From the NCBI GenBank assembly GCA_016196035.1, contig JACPYM010000059.1:52528-116527 (forward strand): a stretch of DNA of 64,000 bases, given 5' to 3'. A program made the translations under genes and the position numbers. The stretch's first letter is position 1; each line of letters begins with the position of its first letter. This document shows, in pieces, positions 26,800 to 50,271 of the stretch. Below the pieces are notes generated by a model. It was not told where the DNA came from. It did not search any database and worked only from the letters and a program-made list of their open reading frames with translations. The stretch is from Acidobacteriota bacterium (lineage in GTDB: Bacteria > Acidobacteriota > Blastocatellia > RBC074).

Positions 26800-27078
26800 T
26801 CGGCTTTCACTTCGGTGTATGGAAAAACCGCGCAGCGGACGGTACCGCGCGCGTGAGCAAGCGGAGCCTGGGCGGTTCGGCCAACGGCGTAAACTTGACG
26901 CGCCGCTTGCTCACGCGCGCGGTACCGTCCCGGCCGCCGCGCCGCTTGCTCACGCGCGCGGTACCGTCCCGGCCTCACGCGCGCGGTACCGTCCCGGCCG
27001 CCGCGCCGCTTGCTCACGCGCGCGGTACCGTCCCGGCCGCCGCGCTCCCGTAAACGCAATTGCAAACCGGTCTAAGAG
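26800..27078. repeat. Family B element copy B1: 27-bp inverted arms (GGACGGTACCGCGCGCGTGAGCAAGCGG) with ~3.7 tandem copies of a 37-40-bp unit
   Basis: Tandem units 26901..27045 (cgccgcttgctcacgcgcgcggtaccgtcccggccgc); conserved termini tttcacttcggtgtatgg / cgtaaacgcaattgcaaaccggtctaag shared with B2, B3. Confidence 0.75.
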
Positions 27079-34861: not shown

Positions 34862-34940
34862 GCCGTGCCCTGCCGCCTACACTGCACGCATCGTCAAACT
34901 ATCTCAATACTTCTTGGTGAATCACTTGCAGGAGGCATTT

Positions 34941-35714
34941 ATGCAGATCAATACACAGGAAACCGTCGGACAACTGGCCGTGCATCTGCCCAGCGCGCCG
35001 CGCGTCTTTGAGCAATTCGGCATTGATTATTGTTGCGGCGGACAGCAGACGCTCGCCGCAGCGTGCGCGCAACGCCACGTGCCGCTCGACCGCGTGCTCG
35101 ATTCGCTGGCCGAAGCCGCCGAATGGCAGCAACTGGCCGGCGCGCCGCGCGATTGGCGCGGCGCGACGCTGACCGCGTTGCAGCAATTCATCGTGGACAC
35201 GCATCACGTCTTCACGCGGCAGGAATTAGCCCGGCTGGAAAAACTCGCGGCCAAAGTCTATGCCGCGCACGGCAGCCGCCACCCTGAATTGGCGCGCTTG
35301 CAAGAACTGTTTTTGCAACTGAAGGAAGAATTGTTGCCGCACATGCTGAAAGAAGAGCAGGTGCTTTTCCCGTATGTGGCGCGCTTGGAAGAAGCCGCGC
35401 AGGCAGGCCAGCCCGCGCCGCCAGCCTTTTTCGGCACAGTCAATCAGCCGGTGCGGATGATGATGCGCGAACACGACACGGCGGGCGACTTGCTCAAGGC
35501 ATTGCGCCAGACGGCGGGCGATTATGTCGTGCCTGCCGATGCTTGCCCAAGTTTCCGCGCGTTGTATCAGGCTCTGCCCGAACTCGAAGCCGACCTGCAT
35601 CAGCACATTCATTTGGAAAACAATTTGCATTTCCCGCGCGCGGTCGAACTCGAAGCGCAACTCGCACCTGAATTGCAAAGCATGACGCAAGCGTTCCGCT
35701 GTCTGGGGCATTGA
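34941..35714 (+). CDS. ytfE: Iron-sulfur cluster repair di-iron protein (RIC / YtfE / ScdA family)
   Basis: N-terminal ScdA_N 'FGIDYCCGG' motif followed by hemerythrin-like His/Glu-rich repeats; GGAGG RBS. Confidence 0.8.
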   Translation: MQINTQETVGQLAVHLPSAPRVFEQFGIDYCCGGQQTLAAACAQRHVPLDRVLDSLAEAAEWQQLAGAPRDWRGATLTALQQFIVDTHHVFTRQELARLEKLAAKVYAAHGSRHPELARLQELFLQLKEELLPHMLKEEQVLFPYVARLEEAAQAGQPAPPAFFGTVNQPVRMMMREHDTAGDLLKALRQTAGDYVVPADACPSFRALYQALPELEADLHQHIHLENNLHFPRAVELEAQLAPELQSMTQAFRCLGH

Positions 35715-35741: not shown

Positions 35742-36572
35742 ATGGACATCAACGCCGTTCGCACCATCGCGCGGCAAGAGCTGGTCATCAACATCCGCAA
35801 CAAATGGACGTTAATTTTCGCCTGTGTCTTCGGCGGCTTGGTGCTCACCATTTCCTATTTCGGGATGTTGACGGCGGGTGCGATTGGCTTTCAGAGCTTC
35901 GCGCGCACCTCGGCCAGCTTGCTCAATCTGGTGTTGTATATCGTGCCCCTCGTCGCGTTGACGATGGGCACGCTCAGTTTTACCAGCGAGAAAAGCCTGA
36001 GCGAGATGCTCTTTGCCCAACCCGTCACGCGCACCGAAATCCTGTTGGGGAAACTGGCTGGGTTGTTCGCTTCGATTCTGACGGCAACGCTAATCGGTTT
36101 CGGGCTGGCGGGTTTCATCATCGCGTCGAAAGCGGGCACGCAAGGGTTGCTGCGCTATCCGGTGTTCGTCGCGTTGTCGTTGCTGCTGGCCTTGGTCTTT
36201 CTGACGCTGGCGGCGCTGGTGTCGTCGTTGTGCCAGCGCAAGACCAAGGCGTTCGGCGTGGTGATGTTCCTCTGGTTCTTCTTCGTTTTGTTTTATGACC
36301 TGCTGGTGATCGGCGTGACGTTTTTGCTGAAAGAACACGCGGCCAATCAATTTATCTTCGCCTCGCTGTTTGGCAATCCGGTGGACATGGTGCGCGTCGC
36401 CAGCCTGATGGTGCTGGATGGGAAGGAAGTCTTTGGCGCGGCGGGCGCGGCGCTCACCAGGTTTTTGGGTGGTGAAACGGCGAGCCTGTCCTTATTGATC
36501 GGGGGCTTGGTTGTTTGGACAGTCGTGCCGTTTCTGGCCGCGCGGCGTTTGCTGCAACGGCAGGATATTTAA
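35742..36572 (+). CDS. nosY: ABC-2 type permease, NosY-like (nitrous oxide reductase maturation transporter permease)
   Basis: 6-TM ABC-2 permease whose pattern ('IARQEL..IRNKW', 'TEILLGKLAG') matches NosY as I remember it; the only nosY candidate near nosDFL. Confidence 0.65.
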   Translation: MDINAVRTIARQELVINIRNKWTLIFACVFGGLVLTISYFGMLTAGAIGFQSFARTSASLLNLVLYIVPLVALTMGTLSFTSEKSLSEMLFAQPVTRTEILLGKLAGLFASILTATLIGFGLAGFIIASKAGTQGLLRYPVFVALSLLLALVFLTLAALVSSLCQRKTKAFGVVMFLWFFFVLFYDLLVIGVTFLLKEHAANQFIFASLFGNPVDMVRVASLMVLDGKEVFGAAGAALTRFLGGETASLSLLIGGLVVWTVVPFLAARRLLQRQDI

Positions 36573-36665
36573 CGCTGATGTTTTGATGCGCCGCGTCTTT
36601 GGAGCGCGTGCGGCACCGGCTGCCGCTTTGGCATCTCTTTGATCGTTCATACATCAAGGAAATAC

Positions 36666-36840
36666 TAGAGCGGTTTGCAGTTGCGTTTACGGGAGTCAGT
36701 TGACATTGGGACAGTACCGCGCGCGTGAGCAAGTGGCGCGTCAAGCTTGCCCCCTTGGCTGAATTGCCAAAGCGCCGCTTGCTCACGCGCGCGGTACTGT
36801 CCCGCTGCGCGGTTTTCCCGTACACCGTAGTGAAAACCGC
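36666..36840. repeat. Family B element copy B2 (inverted orientation, no tandem expansion)
   Basis: Termini are reverse complements of B1 termini; internal gacagtaccgcgcgcgtgagcaagtgg / ccgcttgctcacgcgcgcggtactgtc inverted arms. Confidence 0.7.
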
Positions 36841-36922
36841 TCTGAAGCGGCAGCCGGTGCCGCACGCACTCCAAAGGCTGCGCCTAGCCGATTTGCCCTC
36901 ATGGAATCGCGGGTAAATAACA

Positions 36923-38113
36923 ATGAAGCGTTGGCATAGCATCCTGGCAATCCTCTTCGTCCCGCTCCTCGTCGCGGGCGGCGGATTGCTAGTGCGGCAT
37001 CTCGCGCGCGAACGCACCGAACGCGGCCATTTCGAGCGTAGCGAAACCGAGTTGATGGTGACCAATCTGGCGCGCGTGCCGGTGCAGTTGTTCAAAGCGG
37101 GCCGTAACTTGGCCGAGGCGCAACTGCTCAATGATTTCGACGGCGCGCGCCGCTGGCTGTCAGGGGGCAATCACTTTCTGAAAGCCAACTTCCCCCACCG
37201 CGAAGTTTTTTATCCTATTCCTCTCATCGGTTATCGGCGCGGCCCCGATGCCGAAGGTGCATTCATCATCACAATTCGTTCGCTGAATGAGATGGAACCG
37301 CCAAGCGCAGCCAACGGGCAACACGGCTGGGCGTTCATCCCGAATGGCAGCTTCCTGTTGGGCGACCGGCAAAACCCGCGCGAGCCGCATTATGTCTGGC
37401 TGCCAGGCTTTTTCATCGGCAAGTTTGAAGTGAGCAATGCCGAATACACCGAGTTTCTACGCGCTCCGCAGGGCTACGCTGACGATGCGCAGTGGACGGA
37501 AGCCGGGCGCGTATGGAAGGCCGCGAATACTTCGCAAAGCAGCGCCTTGCTCAAATCGGTTGCGGCGGAATTCGAACGCTTCGGCCAACCCGATCAGCCG
37601 GTGACGGGGGTAACGTGGTTCGAGGCGCAAGCCTATTGCCGCTGGCTGACCAGTCGCTTTGGCGAACGGAAATGGCTTTACGCGCTGCCTTCAGAAGCCG
37701 AATGGGAAAAGGCTGCACGCGGGCCAGATGGTTTTGATTTTGCGCTTAGCCAGACGCTCAGCGATCAAGAGGTACAGCTTTACAATTGGAGGAAGAACCC
37801 CGACGCGCCCGTCACAGTCGTCGGAGCAGCCGAAACGCCCGCGCTTTATCTACCAAACCGCTTCGGCATTTTTCACCTCGGCGGCAATGTCGTCGAGTGG
37901 ACGAGTTCGATCACCAACCCCTTTAATCGCGAACATCTTTACCTCGATGAAGAGCGCAACCGCCTCGAAGGCGGTGAAGAGCGCGTGGCGCGTGGCGGTT
38001 CGTGGTATAGCGCGAGCATCGCCTTGCTGGGTGTGGCCTATCGCGACTCGTTTCGGCCTGAGATCACGCATCACGATTTGGGCTTTCGCATCGTGGCGCG
38101 ACCGCTGCCCTAA
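36923..38113 (+). CDS. FGE-sulfatase (SUMF1/formylglycine-generating enzyme) domain protein with N-terminal membrane anchor; NirV-like
   Basis: 'GVTWFEAQAYCRWL', 'LPSEAEWEKAARG', 'RGGSWYS' FGE-domain motifs. Confidence 0.75.
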   Translation: MKRWHSILAILFVPLLVAGGGLLVRHLARERTERGHFERSETELMVTNLARVPVQLFKAGRNLAEAQLLNDFDGARRWLSGGNHFLKANFPHREVFYPIPLIGYRRGPDAEGAFIITIRSLNEMEPPSAANGQHGWAFIPNGSFLLGDRQNPREPHYVWLPGFFIGKFEVSNAEYTEFLRAPQGYADDAQWTEAGRVWKAANTSQSSALLKSVAAEFERFGQPDQPVTGVTWFEAQAYCRWLTSRFGERKWLYALPSEAEWEKAARGPDGFDFALSQTLSDQEVQLYNWRKNPDAPVTVVGAAETPALYLPNRFGIFHLGGNVVEWTSSITNPFNREHLYLDEERNRLEGGEERVARGGSWYSASIALLGVAYRDSFRPEITHHDLGFRIVARPLP

Positions 38114-38257
38114 CCTGGGAGCGCAGGCATCCCGCCTGCCGTCAAACAAAGCCGCGTAGCATCCTTATCTTGACGAAAAGGGTAAGGATGCTGCGCGCTT
38201 TTCTTATTTGCAGGCGGGACGCCTGCGCCCCCAGGAAATGCAAATAAATTTCGCACC

Positions 38258-38423: not shown

Positions 38424-40355
38424 ATGAGCGACTTCAAGTACAAGACCATCCTTCCCGACATTGAATTTTGGAAAGCTATGGTGCCTTGCCAGGCGGCGTG
38501 CCCGGTCAATACCGATGCGGGCCGCTATGTGCAACTGATCGCGCAGGGCAAATTTGAAGACGCCTATTTCGTCGCGCGTTCGCCCAATCCGTTGGCTTCG
38601 GTGTGCGGGCGCATCTGTGCCGCGCCGTGTGAAGACCGTTGCCGACGCGGCAAGATAGACGCGCCCGTCAGCATTCGCGCGTTGAAGCGCTTCGTCACCG
38701 AACGTTACGGCGTCGAATCGCTCGCGCCCGATACGCAGGATCAATTGCGCGTGGGCCACGGCGATTTGGGCAACAAGGTGCGCGGGCATTTGCCGATCTT
38801 GCAAGCCAATCGCCGCCAGACGCCGCGCGGGCAAAAAGTCGCCGTCATCGGCGCGGGGCCTGCCGGGCTGGCTTGCGCGCACGATCTGGCGTTGATGGGT
38901 TATCGCGTGACGATTTTTGAAGCCACCGAACAAGCGGGCGGGATGATGTTTCATGGCATTCCCGAATTCCGCTTGCCGCGCGCCGTCATTGCCAAAGAGA
39001 TAGACAAGATCGAACAGCTCGGCGTCGAGATTCGCTACGGCACGCCGCTGACGGCTGAGTTCGGGTTGCAGGAATTGAAAGCGGATGGCTACGTCGCCGT
39101 CTTCCTCAGCGTCGGCGTGCAAAAAGGCCGCGACCTCAATATCGAAGGGGCCGAACTCGACGGCGTCATCAAAGCCGTGGATTACCTGATCAACATCAAC
39201 AACGGTTACCGCATGCAGTTGGGCAAGAAGGTGCTCGTCATCGGCGGCGGCTTCGTCGCCTTTGACGCCGCGCGGCTGGCGTTGCGCGCAGGGTTGGAGG
39301 CAGGAGGTGAACAGGATGAAGGCGCAGGTGAATTGAAAACCGCCCTCGACGCTGCGCGCGCCGCCGTCAGAGCAGGTGCGACCGAAGTACATATGGTCAG
39401 TTTGGAATCCTTTGACGAATTGCCGGTGATGCGCACGACGCAGGGCAAGGAAGAGTTTGAAGAGGCGCACCGCGAAGGCATCGTCTTTCATCCGCAACGC
39501 AGCGCGCGCCGCTTCGTCAGCCGCAATGGCCGCGTGCAGGCAGCGGAATTCAAAGGCGTCAAACGCACCTATGACGAACAGGGCCGCTTCAGTCCGCAAT
39601 TCGACGAAGACTTTAGCGAAACGCTGGAAGCCGATTCGGTGATTCTCGCCATCGGCCAGCAAGCCGATCTCTCGTTCATCAAACCCGCCGACGGCGTCGA
39701 GCTTACGCCGCAAGGCACGATCAAGGTGGAGCGCGCGACGCTAGCGACGAGTGCGCCCGGCCTCTTCGCGGGCGGCGACGTGGCGTTTGGCCCGCGCAAC
39801 TTGATCGAAGCCGTGGCGAACGGCAAACGCGCGGCGCTCTCGATTGACGATTACTTGCACAGCGCCGAGACGCACACGGTTTTCAACCTGACGGTCGAAC
39901 GACTGCCCAATCGCACCTATACGATGCCGGAAGAGTATGAGCAACTGGCGCGGCATACCCCGCCGACCATCGCGCTCGACCGCCGCACCGGCATCTCGGA
40001 AGTCGAGACCGGCTACAACGAAGCGCAGGCGCGTGAGCAGGCTGAACGCTGTTTGTCGTGTCACATCCAAACCATCTATGACCCGGCGAAATGCGTGCTG
40101 TGCAACCGCTGTGTGGACGTGTGCCCGGAATACTGTTTGAAGCTGGTGCCGCTGGATGAGCTTGATCTGGATGAACCGACGAAGGAACGCATCGTGGCTG
40201 ATTCGGGCATCACGGTCGAGTTGGGGCAACCCTTATCAGCAATGATCAAAGACGATGACAAGTGCATCCGTTGTGGTTTGTGCGCGCTGCGCTGCCCGAC
40301 GGACGCGATGACGATGGAGGTCTTCTACTATGAAGAGCAAGCAGTCGTGGCTTAA
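38424..40355 (+). CDS. GltD/NfnB/SudA-like NAD(P)H-dependent FeS flavoprotein oxidoreductase with C-terminal 2x[4Fe-4S] ferredoxin domain
   Basis: N-terminal Cys-cluster domain, 'VAVIGAGPAGLACA' FAD and 'VLVIGGGFVAFDAA' NAD(P) Rossmann motifs, C-terminal 'CVLCNRCVDVCP' and 'CIRCGLCALRCP'; 3' end overlaps Rieske gene. Confidence 0.75.
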   Translation: MSDFKYKTILPDIEFWKAMVPCQAACPVNTDAGRYVQLIAQGKFEDAYFVARSPNPLASVCGRICAAPCEDRCRRGKIDAPVSIRALKRFVTERYGVESLAPDTQDQLRVGHGDLGNKVRGHLPILQANRRQTPRGQKVAVIGAGPAGLACAHDLALMGYRVTIFEATEQAGGMMFHGIPEFRLPRAVIAKEIDKIEQLGVEIRYGTPLTAEFGLQELKADGYVAVFLSVGVQKGRDLNIEGAELDGVIKAVDYLININNGYRMQLGKKVLVIGGGFVAFDAARLALRAGLEAGGEQDEGAGELKTALDAARAAVRAGATEVHMVSLESFDELPVMRTTQGKEEFEEAHREGIVFHPQRSARRFVSRNGRVQAAEFKGVKRTYDEQGRFSPQFDEDFSETLEADSVILAIGQQADLSFIKPADGVELTPQGTIKVERATLATSAPGLFAGGDVAFGPRNLIEAVANGKRAALSIDDYLHSAETHTVFNLTVERLPNRTYTMPEEYEQLARHTPPTIALDRRTGISEVETGYNEAQAREQAERCLSCHIQTIYDPAKCVLCNRCVDVCPEYCLKLVPLDELDLDEPTKERIVADSGITVELGQPLSAMIKDDDKCIRCGLCALRCPTDAMTMEVFYYEEQAVVA

Positions 40356-40947
40356 CGCGCGAATTTCAAATTTGAGAGCGAAGACAGAAACCGAGCAACA
40401 GCGGCTGGAGCGCCTCAAGCAGGAAGTTCTGGGCGAAGGCGAAGCCGCCAGCCGGCCCACGCGGCGCTCCTTTCTCACGCGGCTCGGGTTCGGCGCGACG
40501 CTGCTGGCGCTCGCTGGGCAGGCCTACGCCTTCCTGCGCTCGCTCAAACCGAATGTGCTGTACGAAGCGCCGCAACGCTTCAAGGTCGGCACACCCGATC
40601 AATTCGGCGAAGGCGGCAAATTCCTCGAAGACAAACGCCTGTTTGTGTTTCGGCAAGGCAAGACGTTTTACGCCATCTCGGCAAGCTGCACGCATCTGGG
40701 CTGCACGGTCAAAATGGAGAAGCTCAACCAGCCGAAGAAGGTCAAGACGCGCCAGCGCGAATTCGAGGAGCAATACGAATTTCATTGCCCTTGCCACGGC
40801 TCGAAGTATTACGGCGACGGGACGAATTACGCCGGCCCCGCGCCGCGCCCGCTCGATTATTTCAAACTCGAACTGGCGGCAGAGGACGGGCAATTGATCG
40901 TGGATATGGAGCAGAAGGTCGGGCAGGACTTTCGCTTGACAGTGTAG
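40330..40947 (+). CDS. Rieske [2Fe-2S] protein with Tat signal
   Basis: 'RRSFLTRLG' Tat motif; 'CTHLGCTV' and 'CPCHGSKY' Rieske boxes. Confidence 0.8.
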   Translation: MKSKQSWLNARISNLRAKTETEQQRLERLKQEVLGEGEAASRPTRRSFLTRLGFGATLLALAGQAYAFLRSLKPNVLYEAPQRFKVGTPDQFGEGGKFLEDKRLFVFRQGKTFYAISASCTHLGCTVKMEKLNQPKKVKTRQREFEEQYEFHCPCHGSKYYGDGTNYAGPAPRPLDYFKLELAAEDGQLIVDMEQKVGQDFRLTV

Positions 40948-41032: not shown

Positions 41033-42349
41033 ATGGCAGCGAGAAAATCAACTTGGGAAAAGATCACGTGGACGTGGCAGCCCGCGAGCGAGCGCGAAGC
41101 CGGGGATTCCATCGTGCGCAACTTTTTGCTGCATTGGTTTCCGGCCAAGGTCGCGCGCGAAAGCCTGTCGTGGGGCTACTCGTTCTGGCTCGGTACGGTG
41201 TCGGCGGTGCTCTTTCTGATCCTGACGATCACGGGCGGCGTGCTGATGTTTCTGTACGTGCCGTCGGTCGAACGTGCCTATTTGTCGGTCAAGGATTTGG
41301 AATTCACCGTCTCGTTCGGCTGGTTCCTGCGCGGGCTGCATCGCATCGGCGCGCACCTGATGGTGGCGTTTGTGTTTGTGCATATGGTGCGCGTCTTCCT
41401 GACCGGCGCGTACAAGAACGGCACGGCGACGCAGCAGAACCGTCCGTTGAACTGGGTGATTGGCGTCGTGCTGTTGTTGGCGACGTTGCTGCTCTCATTC
41501 ACCGGTTATCTATTGCCGTGGGATCAACTGGCCTATTGGGCGATCACCGTCGGCACGAATATCGCCAGCGCCGCGCCCGTCGTGGGCGAGGCAATGCGCT
41601 TCATTTTGCTGGGCGGCAACACGATCGAGCAAGGCACGCTGATTCGTTTTTACGTGCTGCATTGTTTCTTCCTGCCGCTGCTGGTGCTGGCGTTGTTCTC
41701 GTATCACATGTGGCGCGTGCGCAAAGACGGCGGCTTGGCTTGCGTAGACAAACAGGCGCTCGACCAAAAGCGCGAAAAGGTCGTGCCGAGCAAGAGCAAG
41801 ACCTATTCGCTGCTGGGCATTGCGAGCGGCGCGTCCGTGCACGTTGAGACTTCGCTGGTGGATGAAGTCCAGCACACGGTGCCGTCATCGCCCACGCTGA
41901 CGCGGCGTTTGGCGTTGGTGACGATGGTGACGCTCGCGCTCTCTTCGGTGTTGACACTGCTCTTCCATGCGCCGCTCGAAGCCGCCGCCAACCCTGCCGT
42001 CACGCCAAATCCGGCCAAAGCGCCTTGGTACTTTCTCTGGTTGCAAGAACTGGTCACGATCACCACCTTTACCGTGGGTGGTTACACCATCAATGGCGCG
42101 TTGATCGGCGGCATCATTATTCCAGGCTTGTTGGTCGCGGCGGCCATCGCGTGGCCCTACTTCGACAAGAGTTCGGTGCGCTCGGTGGGCGTGTGGTTTG
42201 CGCCGGAGCGCCGCAAGCAGAATTTGATTTTCTTGCTGGTGGTCGCGGGGATTTTGCTCTTCACCATCATCGGCACGTATCTGCGCGGGCCGTATTGGAA
42301 TTGGTATTGGCCGTGGCAAAGCTGGCCGGTGATGCCGCGTAAGTTTTGA
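41033..42349 (+). CDS. Cytochrome b (b6/bc-type, quinol-oxidising subunit)
   Basis: Polytopic; 'HRIGAHLMVAFVFVHMVRVF' bis-His heme-ligand helix typical of cytochrome b. Confidence 0.8.
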   Translation: MAARKSTWEKITWTWQPASEREAGDSIVRNFLLHWFPAKVARESLSWGYSFWLGTVSAVLFLILTITGGVLMFLYVPSVERAYLSVKDLEFTVSFGWFLRGLHRIGAHLMVAFVFVHMVRVFLTGAYKNGTATQQNRPLNWVIGVVLLLATLLLSFTGYLLPWDQLAYWAITVGTNIASAAPVVGEAMRFILLGGNTIEQGTLIRFYVLHCFFLPLLVLALFSYHMWRVRKDGGLACVDKQALDQKREKVVPSKSKTYSLLGIASGASVHVETSLVDEVQHTVPSSPTLTRRLALVTMVTLALSSVLTLLFHAPLEAAANPAVTPNPAKAPWYFLWLQELVTITTFTVGGYTINGALIGGIIIPGLLVAAAIAWPYFDKSSVRSVGVWFAPERRKQNLIFLLVVAGILLFTIIGTYLRGPYWNWYWPWQSWPVMPRKF

Positions 42350-42436: not shown

Positions 42437-43660
42437 GTGTTCAGCAAAGACGCCATCAAAATTTACCTGCTCGGTGTGGTGATGCTGGCCGTGACGGGGT
42501 TCATTTTCTGGGACAACGTGCTGCCTGAATGGAGCGGCTATCAGAGCGATTTCCGCGCGCTGGTCGCCAAGAAATTCGGCGCGGCGCGCGCGGCGGCGGT
42601 GCCCAGCGGCCTGCATCAGATTTGGGTGAAAGACCTCGACCGCGTAGACCGTTGCACGACCTGTCATCAGGGCATGGAATGGAAAGGCCTGGAAAGCGCC
42701 GCGCAACCGTTTCGTTCGCACCCCACCGAAATTCTGAAAGCGCATCCGCTGAATCAATTCGGCTGCACGGCCTGTCACGGCGGGCAAGGTTATGCCACTG
42801 ATCTCGCCGGCGCGCACGGGCAGGTCGAACATTGGGAAGAGCCGCTGCTCGGCAAAAAAGTCAGCGACACCTATCTGGTCAAAGACAAGAAAGCGCTGAT
42901 GCAGGTCAATTGCAATTCCTGTCATCGCTATGAACGCGAAACCAAAGGCGCCGATTACATCAACGAAGCCAAGCAAATCGTGCAGGAAAAAAACTGCCGC
43001 GCCTGCCACACCATCAACGGACGCGGCGGCACCATCGGCCCCGACCTCACCAACGTCGGCGACAAAGCGCCGGAGCAATACGATTACGGTCACGTGTCGG
43101 GGGTGAAAACAGCGTTCGCCTGGCATGTCGCACATTTGCAAAAACCGAAAGCGATGACGCCGGATACGGTCATGCCCGATTTCAATTTCTCTACGCGGCA
43201 GGCGCAGGCGTTGTCCTTGCTTGTCATGAGTTGGAAACGCGCGACGGTGCCGACGCGCTACATCCCCGGCGCGACGCCCAAGGATGTGCCGACGGCGGAA
43301 GAGATCGCCAAAGAGAAACGCATGCTCGAAGGCGAAGGCGCTTTCTTCGTCAAGAAGGGCTGCTTTATCTGCCATTCCGTGGATTCGCTGGGTATTGAGA
43401 ATTCGGCCAAGATCGGGCCGGATTTGTCCGAGGCTGTAACGGACGTGCAGAGCCGCTTTGGCCGCACGCTGGAAGATTTTTTGAAAGCGCCCAACGGTAC
43501 GATGGCCGTGGTGTTGGCGACACAGATTCATTTGACTGACGACGAGAAACGCGAGGCGGTCGAACGTTTGAAGATCGCTTATCAACGCAAGCAGGAGGGC
43601 GCGAAGCCGAACGCTGCGCCCACGCCTGCGGCCTCGCCGTCACCGGTAGCGAAGAAATAA
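42437..43660 (+). CDS. Membrane-anchored pentaheme c-type cytochrome
   Basis: Five CxxCH motifs (CTTCH, CTACH, CNSCH, CRACH, CFICH); N-terminal TM helix. Confidence 0.75.
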   Translation: MFSKDAIKIYLLGVVMLAVTGFIFWDNVLPEWSGYQSDFRALVAKKFGAARAAAVPSGLHQIWVKDLDRVDRCTTCHQGMEWKGLESAAQPFRSHPTEILKAHPLNQFGCTACHGGQGYATDLAGAHGQVEHWEEPLLGKKVSDTYLVKDKKALMQVNCNSCHRYERETKGADYINEAKQIVQEKNCRACHTINGRGGTIGPDLTNVGDKAPEQYDYGHVSGVKTAFAWHVAHLQKPKAMTPDTVMPDFNFSTRQAQALSLLVMSWKRATVPTRYIPGATPKDVPTAEEIAKEKRMLEGEGAFFVKKGCFICHSVDSLGIENSAKIGPDLSEAVTDVQSRFGRTLEDFLKAPNGTMAVVLATQIHLTDDEKREAVERLKIAYQRKQEGAKPNAAPTPAASPSPVAKK

Positions 43661-43878: not shown

Positions 43879-45744
43879 ATGGAATTACAAACAACAAAAC
43901 TTGATCGCAAGAAAATGAAATGGCTCGGCGCAGGAGCGGTCTGCGTCGCGCTGCTCGGCTTTGCTTTGACCAGTTGCGGCAAGCAACCAAGCACTGCTGA
44001 ATTGGGCGGCACTGCGGAAGCTGCTGCGGCCACTTATGTCGCGCCGGGCGACACCGATGAATATTACCTGTTCTATTCGGGCGGCCATTCGGGCAACGTC
44101 TATGTTGCGGGCGTGCCTTCGATGCGGCACATCTCGACGATTCCCGTGTTTGCGCCTTACCCGGCGACGGGGTATGGCTTTGACGAAGAGTCGAAGAAGA
44201 TGCTGGGCGGGTTCACATGGGGCGACGTGCACCACCCGGCCATCAGCGAGACCAAGGGCGATTACGACGGGCGTTGGCTCTTCGTGAATGACAACGCCAA
44301 CAATCGGCTGGCGCGCATTGACCTGCGCGATTTCAAAACCAAACAGATCCTGGGGCCGATGCCGAATATCTCCGGCTATCACGGCGGTTCGTTCGTGACG
44401 CCTAATACGGAATACGTGTTGGCGGCCTCGCGCTTCTCGGTGCCGTTGCCGAAAGGGACCGTCGAACCGATTGAAAGTTATGCGACGAAATACCACGGGG
44501 TCGTGGCGGGCGTAAAAATTGATCCGACCTCGGGCGAGATGAGCGTCGGTTTTCAAATCCTGATGCCGCCCTTCAATTTTGATTTAGGCGACGCGGGCAA
44601 AGGGCCGAGCGAGGGCTGGGCCTTCTGGACGTGCTACAACTCAGAACGCGCGACCGGCAAGCTCGAAGTGACTTCGACACAAAAAGACCGCGACTACATT
44701 GCAGCGGTGAATTGGAAAGAAGCTGAGAAAGCCGTCGCCGCAGGCAAAGCCAAAATGATCAGCGGCGTGCCGGTGCTTGATCCCAAAGAAGTGCCGGGCA
44801 TCGTTTATTTCGTGCCGTGCAGCAAATCGCCGCACGGCGTGGATGTCACGCCCGATGGCAAATACTTCATCGGCAGCGGCAAGCTGCAATCCATCACGAC
44901 GGCGTTCAACGTCGAGAAGATGCTGACCACGATTCAGAACAAAGATTTCACCGGCAACGAAGACGGCATCCCGGTGCTGAATTACGACAAGGTCAAAGAC
45001 GCCGAAGTCAACGTCGGCCTCGGCCCGCTGCATACGCAATTCGACAATGAGGGCAATGCGTATACCAGCCTCTTTGTCGAGAGCGCCGTGGCGAAATGGA
45101 AGCTTGGCACGTGGGAAGTGCTCGACAAGATTCCAGTTACGTACAACATCGGCCACCTCTGCGCGGCGGAAGGCGACACAGTTCATCCCGCTGGCAAATA
45201 TCTGGTCGCGCTCAATAAGCTTTCGCACGGACGCCACCTGAACGTCGGCCCCTCGCAGCCGGAATGCTCGCAACTCATCAACATCGGCGGCGAAAAGATG
45301 AAGCTGCTCTACGACGCCTTCACCGAACCCGAACCGCATTACGCCCAGATGATCAAGGCCGACAAGCTGAAACCCTTCGAGGTTTATCCCAAAGAAAGCA
45401 ACAAGAACCCGAACGCGATCTGGGACGTGAAGGACGCCAGCGTGGTGCGCAGCGGCAACAACGTCACGGTCAAGCTGGTCGCGGTGCGCAGCAGCTTCGA
45501 GCCCAACAAGATCGAGGTCAACAAAGGTGACACAGTGACGATTCACATCACCAACATCGAACAGACCACCGATGAGCTGCATGGCTTTGGGCTGCTCGAT
45601 TACAACATCAACGTGGTGATAGACCCCGGCGAGACCAAGACGATCAAGTTCGTGGCCGATAAACCGGGTGTTTTCGCCTACTATTGCACCAACTTCTGCT
45701 CGGCGTTGCATCAAGAGATGCAGGGCTATTTGTTGGTGAAGTAG
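43879..45744 (+). CDS. nosZ: Nitrous oxide reductase NosZ (clade II/Sec-dependent, lipoprotein-type signal)
   Basis: C-terminal CuA motif 'CTNFCSALHQEMQGY'; 'LTSC' lipobox rather than Tat motif; size ~620 aa. Confidence 0.9.
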   Translation: MELQTTKLDRKKMKWLGAGAVCVALLGFALTSCGKQPSTAELGGTAEAAAATYVAPGDTDEYYLFYSGGHSGNVYVAGVPSMRHISTIPVFAPYPATGYGFDEESKKMLGGFTWGDVHHPAISETKGDYDGRWLFVNDNANNRLARIDLRDFKTKQILGPMPNISGYHGGSFVTPNTEYVLAASRFSVPLPKGTVEPIESYATKYHGVVAGVKIDPTSGEMSVGFQILMPPFNFDLGDAGKGPSEGWAFWTCYNSERATGKLEVTSTQKDRDYIAAVNWKEAEKAVAAGKAKMISGVPVLDPKEVPGIVYFVPCSKSPHGVDVTPDGKYFIGSGKLQSITTAFNVEKMLTTIQNKDFTGNEDGIPVLNYDKVKDAEVNVGLGPLHTQFDNEGNAYTSLFVESAVAKWKLGTWEVLDKIPVTYNIGHLCAAEGDTVHPAGKYLVALNKLSHGRHLNVGPSQPECSQLINIGGEKMKLLYDAFTEPEPHYAQMIKADKLKPFEVYPKESNKNPNAIWDVKDASVVRSGNNVTVKLVAVRSSFEPNKIEVNKGDTVTIHITNIEQTTDELHGFGLLDYNINVVIDPGETKTIKFVADKPGVFAYYCTNFCSALHQEMQGYLLVK

Positions 45745-45750
45745 TGAGGA

Positions 45751-45884
45751 GACCTCAGACCTCAGACTTCAGACCACAGACCTCAGACCTGTCTTGGATC
45801 GGCGGCCACAGGCGAATTGAGATCGTAGGTCTGAAGTCTGAAGTCTGAGGTCTGAGGTCTGAAGTCTGAGGTCTGAGGTCTGTG
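45751..45884. repeat. Heptamer-repeat hairpin: (CAGACCT)n arm, ~35-nt loop, (AGGTCTG/AAGTCTG)n arm ending at nosB-like start codon
   Basis: gacctcagacctcagacttcagaccacagacctcagacctg ... aggtctgaagtctgaagtctgaggtctgaggtctgaagtctgaggtctgaggtctg. Confidence 0.8.
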
Positions 45885-46517
45885 ATGAAAAGCTGGCTCG
45901 ACAACGCGAACCATTTTTTTGAACTGCCGCTCACGCTGCGCAGCCGCGTGCTGATTCTGGTGGGTGTAGTGCTGTTGACGCCGGTCTTTCTGTTCCCCTT
46001 GTGGAATATGACCTTCAAGTCGAATCAGTATCTCGACGGACTGACGCTCAACATTTACGCCTATCAACTCAAAGGCGGCATGACGCCGAACCGCGATGAT
46101 TTGCGCGAGATCAACTCGCTCAATCATTACATCGGTATGCGTCCGCTGTTGGAAAGCGATTTCGGCGAATTCGTCTGGATTCCCTTTGTCATCGGGGTGC
46201 TGGGCGTGCTGGCGTTGCGCGCTCTGGTCATCGGCAAGATGGCCGGGCTGGTGGATGTCTTTGTGATCTTCACCTATTTCGGGCTGTTCTCGTTCTGGGG
46301 CTTTTACAACAAGCTCTATGCGTATGGACACCATCTTGATCCGACGGCGGCGATCAAGGTGCCGCCGTTCACCCCGCCGCTGCTGGGGACGCAAGTCGTC
46401 GGCAACTTTACGGTGTCGAGCTATCCGGGCGTCGCGTCGTTTGCGCTGGTGTCGTTTGCCGTGTTGTTGCTGGCGGCCATCTTTCTGTCGCGCAAGCAGA
46501 CGAACGAGGCGGCGTGA
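45885..46517 (+). CDS. Polytopic membrane protein, NosB-like (clade II nos accessory)
   Basis: 4-5 TM helices, position directly downstream of nosZ and 4-bp overlap with nosD; assignment by synteny. Confidence 0.5.
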   Translation: MKSWLDNANHFFELPLTLRSRVLILVGVVLLTPVFLFPLWNMTFKSNQYLDGLTLNIYAYQLKGGMTPNRDDLREINSLNHYIGMRPLLESDFGEFVWIPFVIGVLGVLALRALVIGKMAGLVDVFVIFTYFGLFSFWGFYNKLYAYGHHLDPTAAIKVPPFTPPLLGTQVVGNFTVSSYPGVASFALVSFAVLLLAAIFLSRKQTNEAA

Positions 46518-47914
46518 TGTGGCGCAATGTCATCGGGCTGGTTTTGCTGGGAACACTGAGCGCGTTGGCAGTGCGGGCCGACACCTTCACGGTTGGCCTG
46601 CCGCCCGCGCGCTTTCAAGCTTTGACTGACGCCCTTATTGCCGCTCAGCCCGGCGATATTGTGCAAGTTCAACCCGGCACTTACACCGGACAATTCCGGC
46701 TCGACAAACCGCTGACCTTGGTTGGCATTGGCAAACCCGTGTTGCACGGTACAGGCCAGGGCAGCGTCGTAATCATCACGGCTGATCATTGCACCGTGCG
46801 CGGGTTCGTTATCGAACACAGCGGCGGTGATCTGACCGCCGAAGATTCCGGCCTGCTGCTCAAAGCGGATGACAATCTGATCGAAGCGAACGAATTGCGC
46901 GATGTGCTTTACGGCATTTACCTATACCACGCCAGCCGCAACACGCTGCGCGGCAATACGGTGCGCGGGCGGCGCGAACTTGAATTGGGCGAACGTGGCG
47001 CGGCGCTGCACCTCTGGGATTCGCCCGACAACATCATCGAAGACAACACCATCGGTGATGCGCGCGATGGGCTGTACATCCAGGCTTGTTCGGGCACGCT
47101 GGTGCGGCATAACCGTGTGCGCGACGTGCGCTACGGCCTGCATTACATGAACTCGGACGACAATCGGTTTGAGGACAATCTGTTTGAACACAACGTGGCG
47201 GGCGCGGCGATTATGTATTCGCGGCGCATCACGCTGCGACGCAATGCCTTCGCACACAATCGCGGCTTCAGTTCATTCGGCATTCTCTTTCAGGATTGTG
47301 ACGAGATCGTGGCCGAAGAGAATTTCATCATTGATAACGCGACGGGCATTTTTATCGAGGCCCTGCGTAAGAGCAGCTTTCGCCGCAACGTGATCGCCGA
47401 GAATGATCTGGCCTTGCAAATGTTCAGCAACGCCGATCAAACGCTGTTTGCCGCGAATAACTTCGTCGAAAATCTCAGTCCATTGCAGGTCGTCGGCAAA
47501 CGCACCAACGCTGTTTGGCAGGTCAACGGGCAGGGCAATTATTGGAGCGATTACGCCGGTTACGACCTGGACGGCAACGGCATCGGCGATGTGCCGCACA
47601 AGGTGCAAAACGTTTTTGAATACCTCGAAGGCAACTATCCGCGCTTGCGGCTTTACCTGAACAGCCCCGCCGCGCAGGCGTTGGCTGCGGCTGAACAGAG
47701 CTTCCCGATTCTCAAAGGCGCAAACGAAGCCGATACCGCGCCGTTGATGCAGGCCGTCAAGTTGCAGTTCCCGTTGGAAGTGGTGCCGCTGCAAACCGCG
47801 CCACGTCGCGCGACGCAATGGCTGCTGAGTCTCTGCTCATTGCTTAGCGCCAGTGGAGCGTTGTTTGTCATGTGGAAACATCGCCAGCCGCGCGGCGCCA
47901 AGGCAGGAGCCTGA
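46514..47914 (+). CDS. nosD: Periplasmic copper-binding right-handed beta-helix protein NosD
   Basis: Signal peptide, parallel beta-helix repeats ('NxIxxN' ladders), operon position before nosF. Confidence 0.85.
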   Translation: MMWRNVIGLVLLGTLSALAVRADTFTVGLPPARFQALTDALIAAQPGDIVQVQPGTYTGQFRLDKPLTLVGIGKPVLHGTGQGSVVIITADHCTVRGFVIEHSGGDLTAEDSGLLLKADDNLIEANELRDVLYGIYLYHASRNTLRGNTVRGRRELELGERGAALHLWDSPDNIIEDNTIGDARDGLYIQACSGTLVRHNRVRDVRYGLHYMNSDDNRFEDNLFEHNVAGAAIMYSRRITLRRNAFAHNRGFSSFGILFQDCDEIVAEENFIIDNATGIFIEALRKSSFRRNVIAENDLALQMFSNADQTLFAANNFVENLSPLQVVGKRTNAVWQVNGQGNYWSDYAGYDLDGNGIGDVPHKVQNVFEYLEGNYPRLRLYLNSPAAQALAAAEQSFPILKGANEADTAPLMQAVKLQFPLEVVPLQTAPRRATQWLLSLCSLLSASGALFVMWKHRQPRGAKAGA

Positions 47915-47915
47915 A

Positions 47916-48836
47916 ATGAGTATTCACGTAAACCATCTGACCCGCCGGTTTGGCGAACACGTTGCCGTCAACGATGTCTCGTTTGAGATCAAACCGGGCG
48001 AAACCTTTGCGCTGCTCGGGCCGAATGGCAGCGGCAAAACCACCACGTTGAAATGCATCGTGGGCTTGCTCGAACCGACGGCGGGACAAATCCAGATCAA
48101 CCAACTCGATGTTTGGAAAGACCCGCATCAGGCGCGGCGGTTATTCAGTTACTTGCCGCAGCGCGTCGCGTTCCCCGACGGCTTGACGGCGCGCGAAGTG
48201 CTGCAATTTTATGCTGATCTGCGCCAGCTCGCGCCGCAACGCGTAGACACAATCCTCAGCGGCGAACGCTTCCACTTCAACGGCTTCACCGACAAACCGG
48301 TCGGCAAGTTTTCGGGCGGCATGGTGCAACGCCTGGGCCTCGCCGTCGCCTGCCTGCCCGATGCGCCCGTGCTGTTGCTGGATGAGCCGACGGTGAGTCT
48401 TGATCCCGAAGGCGCGCTACGCTTCCGCGCCTTTCTGCAAGCGCTCAAAGCAGAAGGCAAGACGATTGTGTTCACTTCGCACGTGCTGGCCGATGTCGAA
48501 CAACTGGCCGACCGCGTGGCGATTCTGGTGGGCGGCAAACTGGTCGCCATCGAATCCATCACCGCTTTGCGCGAAGGGCTGATGCGCAGCAGCCGCATGC
48601 GCGTCGTCTTGCGCGCGCCGCAGCCATCCTTGCAAACGGCCGCGCTGACGGCAGGCGCGAGCGAAGTTTTGGTTGAAGGCGAATCCTTGCTGATTGTTTC
48701 GCGCCCGGAAGACCGGTTGGAGATTTTGCGGGCGCTCGAAAACAACGGCGGGCACGTCGAGCGCTTTGCCACTGAAGAGCTTTCGCTGGAAGACATCTAT
48801 CTGCGCTACATCGAGGAATCAGCAACACACGTGTGA
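47916..48836 (+). CDS. nosF: ABC transporter ATP-binding protein NosF
   Basis: Walker A 'GPNGSGKTT', signature 'FSGGMVQRLGLA', Walker B 'LLLDEPT'. Confidence 0.85.
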   Translation: MSIHVNHLTRRFGEHVAVNDVSFEIKPGETFALLGPNGSGKTTTLKCIVGLLEPTAGQIQINQLDVWKDPHQARRLFSYLPQRVAFPDGLTAREVLQFYADLRQLAPQRVDTILSGERFHFNGFTDKPVGKFSGGMVQRLGLAVACLPDAPVLLLDEPTVSLDPEGALRFRAFLQALKAEGKTIVFTSHVLADVEQLADRVAILVGGKLVAIESITALREGLMRSSRMRVVLRAPQPSLQTAALTAGASEVLVEGESLLIVSRPEDRLEILRALENNGGHVERFATEELSLEDIYLRYIEESATHV

Positions 48837-48839
48837 ATT

Positions 48840-49298
48840 ATGCCGAGACCGTTTGAGAGAAAACACTGCGTCATTCTTTTTGCCGCAGCCCTCTGGCTGC
48901 TCGCGGCTTGCCAAAGCCACAAACTGGAACCCGCCGCCCTGTCGCCTGAAGATATGTGCACCGATTGCAAGATGGCGATTTCAGAAAAGCAATTCGCCGC
49001 GCAATACCTGACCAAAGATGGCGAGGCCGTTAAATTCGATGACCTCGGCTGTCTGGCGCGTTATCTGAAAAGTCACCCGCAACAACGCGCCGAAAGCGCG
49101 GCCTTTTTCGTGATGGATTACGAAACGAAACAATGGCTCAACGCCGAGTCCGCGTTTTACGTCAACTCCGATAAATTCCAAACGCCAATGCGTGGCGGCT
49201 TTGCGGCCTTCAGTACACGTCAACGCGCCGAGGCCGCTGCTGCTGCCAAACAAGGCCGCTTGTTCACTTGGCAGGCAGTGCTGACCAACGCCAAATAG
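48840..49298 (+). CDS. nosL: Copper chaperone lipoprotein NosL
   Basis: Lipobox 'LLAAC', 'CTDCKMAIS' Cu-binding region, ~150 aa, follows nosF with 3-bp gap. Confidence 0.8.
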   Translation: MPRPFERKHCVILFAAALWLLAACQSHKLEPAALSPEDMCTDCKMAISEKQFAAQYLTKDGEAVKFDDLGCLARYLKSHPQQRAESAAFFVMDYETKQWLNAESAFYVNSDKFQTPMRGGFAAFSTRQRAEAAAAAKQGRLFTWQAVLTNAK

Positions 49299-49470: not shown

Positions 49471-50271
49471 GTGATGACGCAAATGGAGGCAAAAGAATTA
49501 GTCCCTTTGCACGCGCTCGGCGCGCTCGATGCCGTCACGGCGGGCGAAGTGGAACGCTATCTGCGCCAAGCCTCGCTGGAAGAGCAGCGCGAGGCGGCGG
49601 AGTTTCGCGAAGTAGCCGCGCTCTTGCCCTTCGCTTTGCTGTCGCCCGCCGTGCGGCCCGCCTTAAAAGGCCAATTGCTCGGACGAATTAATGAGGGAAT
49701 GCTGGCGTCGAGCCGTCCCGCAACAGTCACAGGCGGCCAGGTCTTGGAATTCAAGCTGCGCGCGCGCGCTGAACGCTCCTGGTCGCAAAATTTTTCGCAG
49801 TGGCTGGCAGTCGCGGCTTCATTGATATTGGCGGCAGCGAGCGCGCTGTTTTTTTGGCAGAACCGCCAGCTCAAGAACGAACGCGCTCAGCTTGCGCAGC
49901 GCTTGCAGAGCGCGCAACAGACCATCGAACAGATGCAAGCGCCCACCACGCGCGTCCTCGCGTTAAAAGGCCAGGAAGCACCCCAGGCCAGCGCCAAAGT
50001 GTTTTGGGATACGACACGCCACGAATGGGTGATGCAGGTATTCAATCTGCCCGACGCGCCGCTGGCCATGGACTATCAGCTTTGGTACGTGACCAAAGAC
50101 GCCAAACTGAGCGCCGCCGTCTTTCGCCCCGATACGCAAGGGCGGGCCGAATTGCGCTTGTCGTTGCCGGGCGGCGTCGCCGAGAAACTGGCGGCGACGG
50201 CTGTGACGCTTGAACCGCGCGGCGGCTCGCCGCAACCGACCGGCAAATTCTATTTGCTGGCCCAGATTTAA
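49471..50271 (+). CDS. Anti-sigma factor (RskA-like), single TM, no adjacent sigma gene
   Basis: N-terminal 'ELVPLHALGALD..EVERYL' anti-sigma motif, central TM helix, C-terminal RskA-like periplasmic domain. Confidence 0.55.
   Translation: MMTQMEAKELVPLHALGALDAVTAGEVERYLRQASLEEQREAAEFREVAALLPFALLSPAVRPALKGQLLGRINEGMLASSRPATVTGGQVLEFKLRARAERSWSQNFSQWLAVAASLILAAASALFFWQNRQLKNERAQLAQRLQSAQQTIEQMQAPTTRVLALKGQEAPQASAKVFWDTTRHEWVMQVFNLPDAPLAMDYQLWYVTKDAKLSAAVFRPDTQGRAELRLSLPGGVAEKLAATAVTLEPRGGSPQPTGKFYLLAQI

Follow-up and report, generated by a model that had tools for sequence, protein, structure and literature searches.

An FGE-like protein without the copper-binding cysteine pair, encoded beside nosY, as a candidate optional accessory of clade II nitrous oxide reductase

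A 396-residue protein with a formylglycine-generating enzyme (FGE) fold, encoded beside nosY in a clade II nos locus, might be a membrane-tethered adaptor that works next to NosDFY and NosL and aids the assembly or stability of the copper centres of the nitrous oxide reductase NosZ. The gene lies in a stretch of 64,000 nucleotides (nt) from an Acidobacteriota bacterium (GenBank assembly GCA_016196035.1, contig JACPYM010000059.1, positions 52,528 to 116,527), to which we refer as the window. On its forward strand, the window has a full set of clade II nos genes, among which the FGE-like gene is found between nosY and the operon gltD-Rieske-cyt b-cyt c-nosZ(clade II)-nosB-nosD-nosF-nosL. We give the proposed role in copper-centre assembly or stability a tentative probability of about 0.4. 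The FGE-like protein itself would be a binding or scaffold module and is probably non-catalytic, by analogy with other members of the superfamily.

NosZ destroys the greenhouse gas N2O, and the organisms with clade II NosZ, to which soil Acidobacteriota belong, are held to be the main biological N2O sink. The acquisition of copper centres by the Sec-exported clade II NosZ is much less understood than that in clade I. A tightly conserved gene linked to nos is a concrete new candidate in this pathway. The gene marks a subset of the nos clusters, and its product is a candidate for an optional helper of NosZ in many soil bacteria. Our literature search for FGE-domain proteins (under the names formylglycine, SUMF1, EgtB, PvdO and NirV) in connection with nos clusters found no description of such a link. 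The protein is thus a candidate for a previously undescribed accessory of a copper enzyme in denitrification, with an FGE fold but with an architecture and a partner of its own.

Linkage of the FGE-like gene to nosY

We scanned species-representative genomes, one per species, with the FGE-like protein. There were 109 matches, and the best 80 loci, each covering 10 kb on either side of the match, were analysed, of which 76 were informative. The nos genes in these loci were called by tblastn with the nos proteins of the window, at a coverage of at least 40% and a score of at least 50 bits. We found nosY in 68 of the 76 informative loci, upstream of the FGE-like gene in 63 and downstream in five, and the distance between the two genes was 600 nt or less in 58 of the 68. 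The initial annotation had assigned the gene to the nos neighbourhood, and the recurrent linkage bears this out.

The commonest order was Rieske-cytB-cytC-nosZ-nosB-nosD-nosF-nosL-nosY-FGE, and the FGE-like gene is usually the last gene of the nos cluster. No conserved gene was found downstream of it among 84 loci. A second order, nosL-FGE-nosY, occurs in five loci (L051, L057, L060, L061 and L069 in our numbering), where the tblastn alignments of nosY and of the FGE-like gene overlap by 15–49 nt, suggesting overlapping or abutting reading frames. The cluster in the window is split, with ytfE-nosY-FGE upstream of the electron-transfer module and nosD, nosF and nosL downstream of nosZ. This split arrangement, with nosD, nosF and nosL downstream, recurs in L002 and L086; the FGE-like gene is a direct neighbour of nosY in the window and in L002, and L086 ends just before the FGE-like gene. 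Homologues of the window nosY come after nosD-nosF-nosL in more than 60 other loci. There is no second nosY after nosF and nosL in the window, where the gene upstream of the FGE-like gene is the only nosY candidate.

The record titles of the carriers name Acidobacteriota (Blastocatellia/Pyrinomonadaceae, Terriglobia, Bryobacteraceae, Vicinamibacteria and Holophagales), Bacteroidota/Ignavibacteria/Chlorobi and KSB1/Zhuqueibacterota; these taxa are taken from the titles, and some of the "uncultured X" labels are probably unreliable. Each carrier that we looked up was a metagenome-assembled genome (MAG), and no cultured carrier was found among them.

The FGE-like protein diverges in step with NosY, NosD and NosZ. 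Its pairwise identities correlate with those of NosY (r = 0.76), NosD (r = 0.79) and NosZ (r = 0.63), a level similar to that of the nos proteins among themselves (0.71–0.89). The mean identities are likewise similar, at 57% for the FGE-like protein, 61% for NosY and 58% for NosD.

Two further observations concern the structure of these loci. In seven loci (L079, L081, L017, L024, L072, L020 and L027), lineage-specific genes of various kinds stand between nosY and the FGE-like gene; judged by eye, their products resemble a fasciclin, a membrane protein of the HxxHH hydroxylase type and a CPBP protease. At positions 8953-9794 of L026, nosB is reduced to a fragment of residues 2-68 that adjoins residues 62-276 of nosY, and nosD, nosF and nosL are missing, with the FGE-like gene intact. 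L026 is either a degenerate cluster or an artefact of MAG assembly.

Domain architecture and membrane anchor

The open reading frame (ORF) of the FGE-like gene starts with ATG, and the N-terminus of its product (MKRW...) agrees with those of the homologues. The protein has one hydrophobic segment, at residues 6-24, where the Kyte-Doolittle mean over 19 residues reaches 2.48, compared with 0.85 or less elsewhere in the protein. K2 and R3 sit before this segment, which is kept in 77 of 79 full-length homologues. Because of this conservation, the description of the protein as membrane-anchored in the initial annotation is reasonable. No lipobox cysteine was found in the N-terminus. We read the segment as a signal anchor. 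As the sole hydrophobic segment lies at the extreme N-terminus in the manner of a signal anchor, the soluble part of the protein most likely faces the periplasm.

The soluble part comprises two domains joined by a proline-rich linker. Residues ~40-120 were modelled as a transthyretin/CnaB-like beta-sandwich. A Pfam search of this N-terminal domain gave no match, and it contains no His, Met or Cys conserved across the family. Residues 136-391 match the Pfam family PF03781 (FGE-sulfatase) with 138.8 bits against a cutoff of 23.3 (E=3.2e-40). Together with the profile matches of the flanking nos genes, this confirms that an FGE-domain ORF is indeed located between nosY and the electron-transfer/nosZ operon, as first noted. 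The full-length AlphaFold2 (AF2) model has a predicted local confidence (pLDDT) of 68.9 overall and of 30–60 over residues 268-377 of the FGE domain, which is poor. Since the C-terminal half of the FGE domain is poorly modelled, the structural comparison merely restates the superfamily, and the Foldseek matches with this model, at TM-scores of 0.3–0.4, are to be read at the superfamily level.

Loss of the copper-binding cysteine pair and an invariant histidine

The FGE domain retains motifs that are common with FGE at the level of the fold, namely E-x-P-x-H-x-V, AYC-W, GN-x-x-EW, RGGS and GFR. The cysteines that bind Cu(I) in human FGE, C336 and C341, align with Ser363 and Ile366 of the window protein. 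The pair is present in none of 84 homologues; most of them have at most one cysteine, and six have none. The single cysteine of the window protein, C239, lies inside the fold motif AYCRW. With the Cu(I)-binding pair lost, the protein cannot act as a formylglycine-generating enzyme. The initial annotation had argued for a link to copper from the fact that FGE is itself a copper enzyme, an argument that falls with the pair.

The family has signatures of its own: LYNW[KR]KNP, RGGSWY[ST]AS and a histidine, His318 (37874-37876), in the motif G-x-x-H-x-x-GN-x-x-EW. His318 is invariant in all 80 homologues in which the motif was located; the other four had no match to the motif. The nearest domains of the superfamily have Asp at the equivalent position in 319 of 352 cases. 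We take this position to be that of a side-chain ligand of the second Ca2+ site in the human FGE structure, a lead that suggests that His318 may mark an altered metal site. Across 28 aligned sequences of the family, ~80 positions are invariant.

These features raise the alternative of an enzyme or a metal-binding protein with new chemistry, located at a His318/Glu325 site in place of the Ca2+ site or at the RGGSWY[ST]AS loop, which might modify a nos protein or handle the sulfur or copper species needed for the CuZ centre. We know of no settled sulfur source for CuZ. A catalytic or metal-binding function would be in keeping with a conservation as strong as that of the Nos maturation proteins, with the switch from the prevalent Asp to an invariant His at position 318, and with the mostly oxidative, thiol-acting chemistry of the characterised superfamily members (FGE, EgtB, OvoA and SenA). 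We consider it rather unlikely nonetheless. The family has neither the Cys pair nor a conserved Met- or His-rich motif typical of copper handling, and we did not find in the protein a DinB_2 domain with its three-His iron site. Moreover, the known chemistries require O2, whereas N2O respiration is anoxic, and the gene is optional in related clusters, as described below. A metal-ligand role of position 318 is proposed by analogy with the human FGE structure.

Possible role beside the copper-delivery machine

The reading that we prefer, an adaptor that aids NosZ copper-centre assembly or stability, can be outlined as follows. The FGE-like protein would be tethered to the cytoplasmic membrane beside NosY, which is the permease in the copper-delivery machine NosDFY. 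The beta-sandwich could act as a spacer, and the FGE-fold domain as the partner-binding module on the periplasmic side. The candidate partners would be Sec-exported NosZ in an unfolded or apo state, NosL or NosD. Under some conditions, holding the partner in this place might improve or stabilise copper-centre assembly in N2O reductase. We infer a binding role because PorK/GldK and the cysteine-less Tsi3 act in this way, as discussed in the next section.

Several observations weigh against the proposed adaptor role. The first is the distribution of the gene among close relatives. A scan of metagenome contigs anchored on nosZ yielded 80 loci, with NosZ 54–87% identical to that of the window, and 23 loci with nosY and at least 1300 nt beyond it formed the test set. 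Only four of the 23 related clusters have the FGE-like gene; the other 19 have no trace of it at the nos locus. L086, a fifth locus in the same scan, has the arrangement of the window. The absence of the gene from 19 of 23 clusters indicates that it is no general requirement for the maturation of NosZ, and the gene is not a general part of clade II nos clusters. NosY proteins from clusters without the gene are up to 90% identical to those from clusters with it, and no alignment column of NosY separates the two groups, which argues against an obligate, co-adapted contact with NosY. Judged from this sporadic presence and the comparison of NosY across the groups, the gene is an optional accessory with a history of repeated gain or loss. 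Secondly, in eight of the homologous loci nos genes are absent from the 10 kb on either side, and their contexts are heterogeneous; these loci are L012 and, at 43–49% identity, the seven more divergent homologues L073, L075-L078, L082 and L084. Thirdly, the ~80 invariant positions and the invariant His318 would also fit an enzyme or a metal-binding protein. Finally, the assignment of the partner is entirely comparative.

Some of these points would also suit a mere passenger of nos operons, carried at their 3' end, such as a gene for a periplasmic protein with a general envelope or stress role and without any function specific to N2O reduction: the gene is usually the last in the cluster, it is missing from most of the related clusters, its eight nos-free homologues stand in unrelated contexts, and no co-adaptation of NosY was detected. 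We find a mere passenger doubtful because the linkage to nosY persists across several phyla named in the record titles, two gene orders and rearrangements of the cluster, and because the gene co-diverges with the nos genes. A neutral gene would not hold a mean identity of 57% and so many invariant residues.

A more far-reaching reading, which we hold to be improbable, is that a dedicated cysteine-less branch of the FGE superfamily was recruited as a maturation or stabilisation factor for the Sec-exported clade II NosZ, acting either by capture of apo-NosZ or through a new His/Glu metal site. In the first variant, unfolded apo-NosZ could be held at the membrane, as FGE captures unfolded sulfatases. 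In the second variant, the new His/Glu site could serve copper or sulfur handling in the assembly of CuZ. If such a recruitment took place, then, with NirV and NirK as the other case, proteins of the FGE fold would have come to assist periplasmic copper enzymes of denitrification on at least two occasions.

Comparison with known FGE-fold proteins

The initial annotation had compared the protein with NirV. NirV is encoded downstream of nirK according to Jain & Shapleigh 2001, as cited in PMC4770552. It is non-essential and present in ~61% of nirK genomes (PMC4770552), and its activity is described as unknown (PMC10356946; PMC4770552). The two proteins share the PF03781 fold and a hydrophobic segment at the N-terminus, and each is optional and encoded beside a periplasmic copper enzyme of denitrification. 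The partner of the window protein is nosY/nosZ, whereas that of NirV is nirK. NirV, with 304 residues, has no beta-sandwich domain and none of the family motifs, and it has Asp at the position of His318. In a pairwise BLASTP comparison with one NirV sequence, from Sinorhizobium meliloti, the score was 31.6 bits, with 25% identity over 110 residues. The window protein matches PorK at 54 bits and FGE at ~50 bits, both above NirV, and a tblastn search with the window protein against the nirK region of pSymA gave no match at E<=1e-3. Orthology to the S. meliloti pSymA NirV was rejected because the similarity is marginal, and the label NirV-like is not sustained.

One could still regard the window protein as a NirV-type protein of the same functional family as the nirK-linked one, serving NosZ in place of NirK. 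Besides the shared fold, hydrophobic segment and gene position, neither protein has the canonical CxxxxC loop of FGE. We think this very unlikely given the marginal alignment, the tblastn search without a match and the missing beta-sandwich domain and motifs of NirV; the family is no nearer to NirV than to PorK, FGE or EgtB. The analogy also gives no mechanism, as the function of NirV is unknown (PMC10356946; PMC4770552). The nosY-linked family offers a second, independent case in which an FGE-fold protein is associated with a copper enzyme of denitrification, and it could help to solve the function of NirV.

The best-scoring solved relative of the family is PorK/GldK, with 86 bits against the family profile. 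Like the window protein, PorK/GldK has an FGE fold without the catalytic cysteines, and PorK is a periplasmic structural or binding module. PorK belongs to the type IX secretion system as a ring lipoprotein, whereas the window protein has neither a lipobox nor the context of this secretion system. Tsi3, an immunity protein of the type VI secretion system, is a cysteine-less FGE fold that works purely by protein binding (bioRxiv 10.1101/2021.05.21.445229). It resembles the window protein in this cysteine-less fold, but its context, with an effector of the type VI secretion system as the partner, is unrelated. Matches on Acinetobacter baumannii plasmids, at ~28% identity to the window protein, are possibly of the Tsi3 type and are annotated as "formylglycine-generating enzyme family protein".

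SUMF1/FGE and SUMF2/pFGE have the fold and the fold-level motifs in common with the window protein, and SUMF2 likewise lacks the catalytic cysteines. Compared with SUMF1/FGE, the window protein has an additional anchor, a beta-sandwich and a nos context, and has no Cys pair and no sulfatase partner. The highest similarity of the FGE-like domain by NCBIfam and Foldseek is to EgtB/OvoA/SenA. These are enzymes of the cytoplasm with the iron site in an N-terminal DinB_2 domain, which the window protein does not have.

Homologue family and misleading annotations

The window protein is identical to MBI1766487.1 and MBI3424836.1 from Acidobacteria MAGs, which NCBI labels "SUMF1/EgtB/PvdO family nonheme iron enzyme". 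We found more than 120 full-length homologues of ~396 residues at 50–82% identity to the window protein. A protein library clustered at 50% identity contains essentially one full-length representative of the family, together with fragments. The next relatives beyond the family are FGE domains, 30–37% identical, within giant multidomain proteins. A search of a plasmid collection with the FGE-like protein returned no close relative, every match being below 32% identity.

The public names of the family members (P0287 and others) include "Hercynine oxygenase" and "FGE required for sulfatase activity". Both labels are contradicted by the features of the sequence. A genuine FGE, or a sulfoxide synthase of the EgtB/OvoA type, as these annotations would have it, is extremely improbable. 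The sole support for either is the Pfam domain and NCBIfam scores below threshold, at 95.1 bits against a cutoff of 420 for SenA, 82.1 against 360 for EgtB and 66.3 against 400 for OvoA; GldK (TIGR03525, 83 against 350) and PvdO (44 against 500) are equally far below their cutoffs. We rejected a genuine FGE because the Cys pair is absent, because the scanned ORFs of the window, which were its main ORFs, contain no sulfatase domain, and because the conserved neighbour is nosY, the family having no conserved partner other than nos. EgtB, SenA and OvoA were rejected for the lack of a DinB domain and for scores that are all below the curated cutoffs. The initial annotation had named clustering with sulfatase-maturing FGEs and a sulfatase partner as the outcome that would overturn its proposal. 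This outcome did not arise, as the protein stands apart from the sulfatase-maturing FGEs and no sulfatase partner was found among the loci and ORFs scanned. Even if the protein were irrelevant to NosZ, a widespread mis-annotation is corrected.

The nos locus of the window

The features of the locus are listed in Table 1.

Table 1. Features of the nos locus and of the FGE-like protein in the window
Feature	Position	Strand	Evidence or remark
ytfE/RIC di-iron Fe-S repair gene	34914-35714	+	TIGR03652, 229.8 bits against cutoff 204.7; directly upstream of nosY
nosY, ABC-2 permease of NosDFY	35742-36572	+	PF12679, E=1.5e-24
Nested palindromic repeat element in nosY-FGE spacer	36597-36876	.	Three inverted-repeat pairs
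nosY-associated FGE-like gene	36923-38113	+	396 residues; ORF and Pfam PF03781, E=3.2e-40
N-terminal hydrophobic segment, residues 6-24	36938-36994	+	Kyte-Doolittle 19-residue mean 2.48; AF2 helix at residues 2-38
Beta-sandwich domain, residues ~40-120	37040-37282	+	Transthyretin/CnaB/CarboxypepD-regulatory type; family-specific
FGE-sulfatase-fold domain, residues 136-391	37328-38095	+	Without the catalytic Cys pair
Terminator-like hairpin	38153-38197	+	19-bp stem and T-rich tail, 40 nt past the stop codon; consensus scan only
GltD-like FAD/Fe-S oxidoreductase	38424-40355	+	Profile match
Rieske	40330-40947	+	Profile match
Cytochrome b	41033-42349	+	Profile match
c-type cytochrome	42437-43660	+	Profile match
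nosZ, Sec-dependent clade II	43879-45744	+	TIGR04246, 905.2 bits against cutoff 625
nosB-like gene	45882-46517	+	Named by position only
nosD	46514-47914	+	Pfam NosD; order conserved across loci
nosF	47853-48836	+	Pfam ABC_tran; order conserved across loci
nosL	48840-49298	+	Pfam NosL; order conserved across loci

Because a terminator-like hairpin follows the FGE-like gene, it is probably the last gene of a ytfE-nosY-FGE transcription unit. The spacer between nosY and the FGE-like gene is 350 nt in the window, compared with 1–100 nt in most other loci, and contains a nested palindromic element with inverted-repeat arms of 32, 32 and 28 nt. The core arm, GGGACAGTACCGCGCGCGTGAGCAAG, occurs four more times in another intergenic region, at 26836-27034. 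The element looks like a REP/MITE-type insertion (a repetitive extragenic palindrome or a miniature inverted-repeat transposable element) that is no part of the protein system. An Rfam search of the spacer gave only sub-threshold artefacts of the miRNA-hairpin kind, and the search for an FNR/CRP-type box upstream of the FGE-like gene gave only degenerate matches, mostly within coding sequence. No Cu-oxidase domain of the NirK type was found among the scanned ORFs of the window.

Some neighbouring genes deserve a brief mention. The operon of Rieske, cyt b, cyt c and nosZ is headed by an oxidoreductase with FAD and multiple [4Fe-4S] clusters, resembling GltD, the small subunit of glutamate synthase, which is kept in many related loci and may connect the electron-transfer chain of nos with NAD(P)H or ferredoxin. 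An anti-sigma-K gene (RskA_C, 49471-50271) comes after nosL. A DUF1800 gene is located at 51662-53848 on the reverse strand, and another (L078, 11613-13478) follows an unlinked homologue of the FGE family, which is probably a coincidence. Positions 1-33000 of the window are typical of Acidobacteria, with genes for two CarboxypepD_reg/OMP_b-brl_4 outer-membrane proteins, an M61 peptidase, GH127, GH31, an arabinofuranosidase and DUF1549/DUF1553/DUF1501 proteins.

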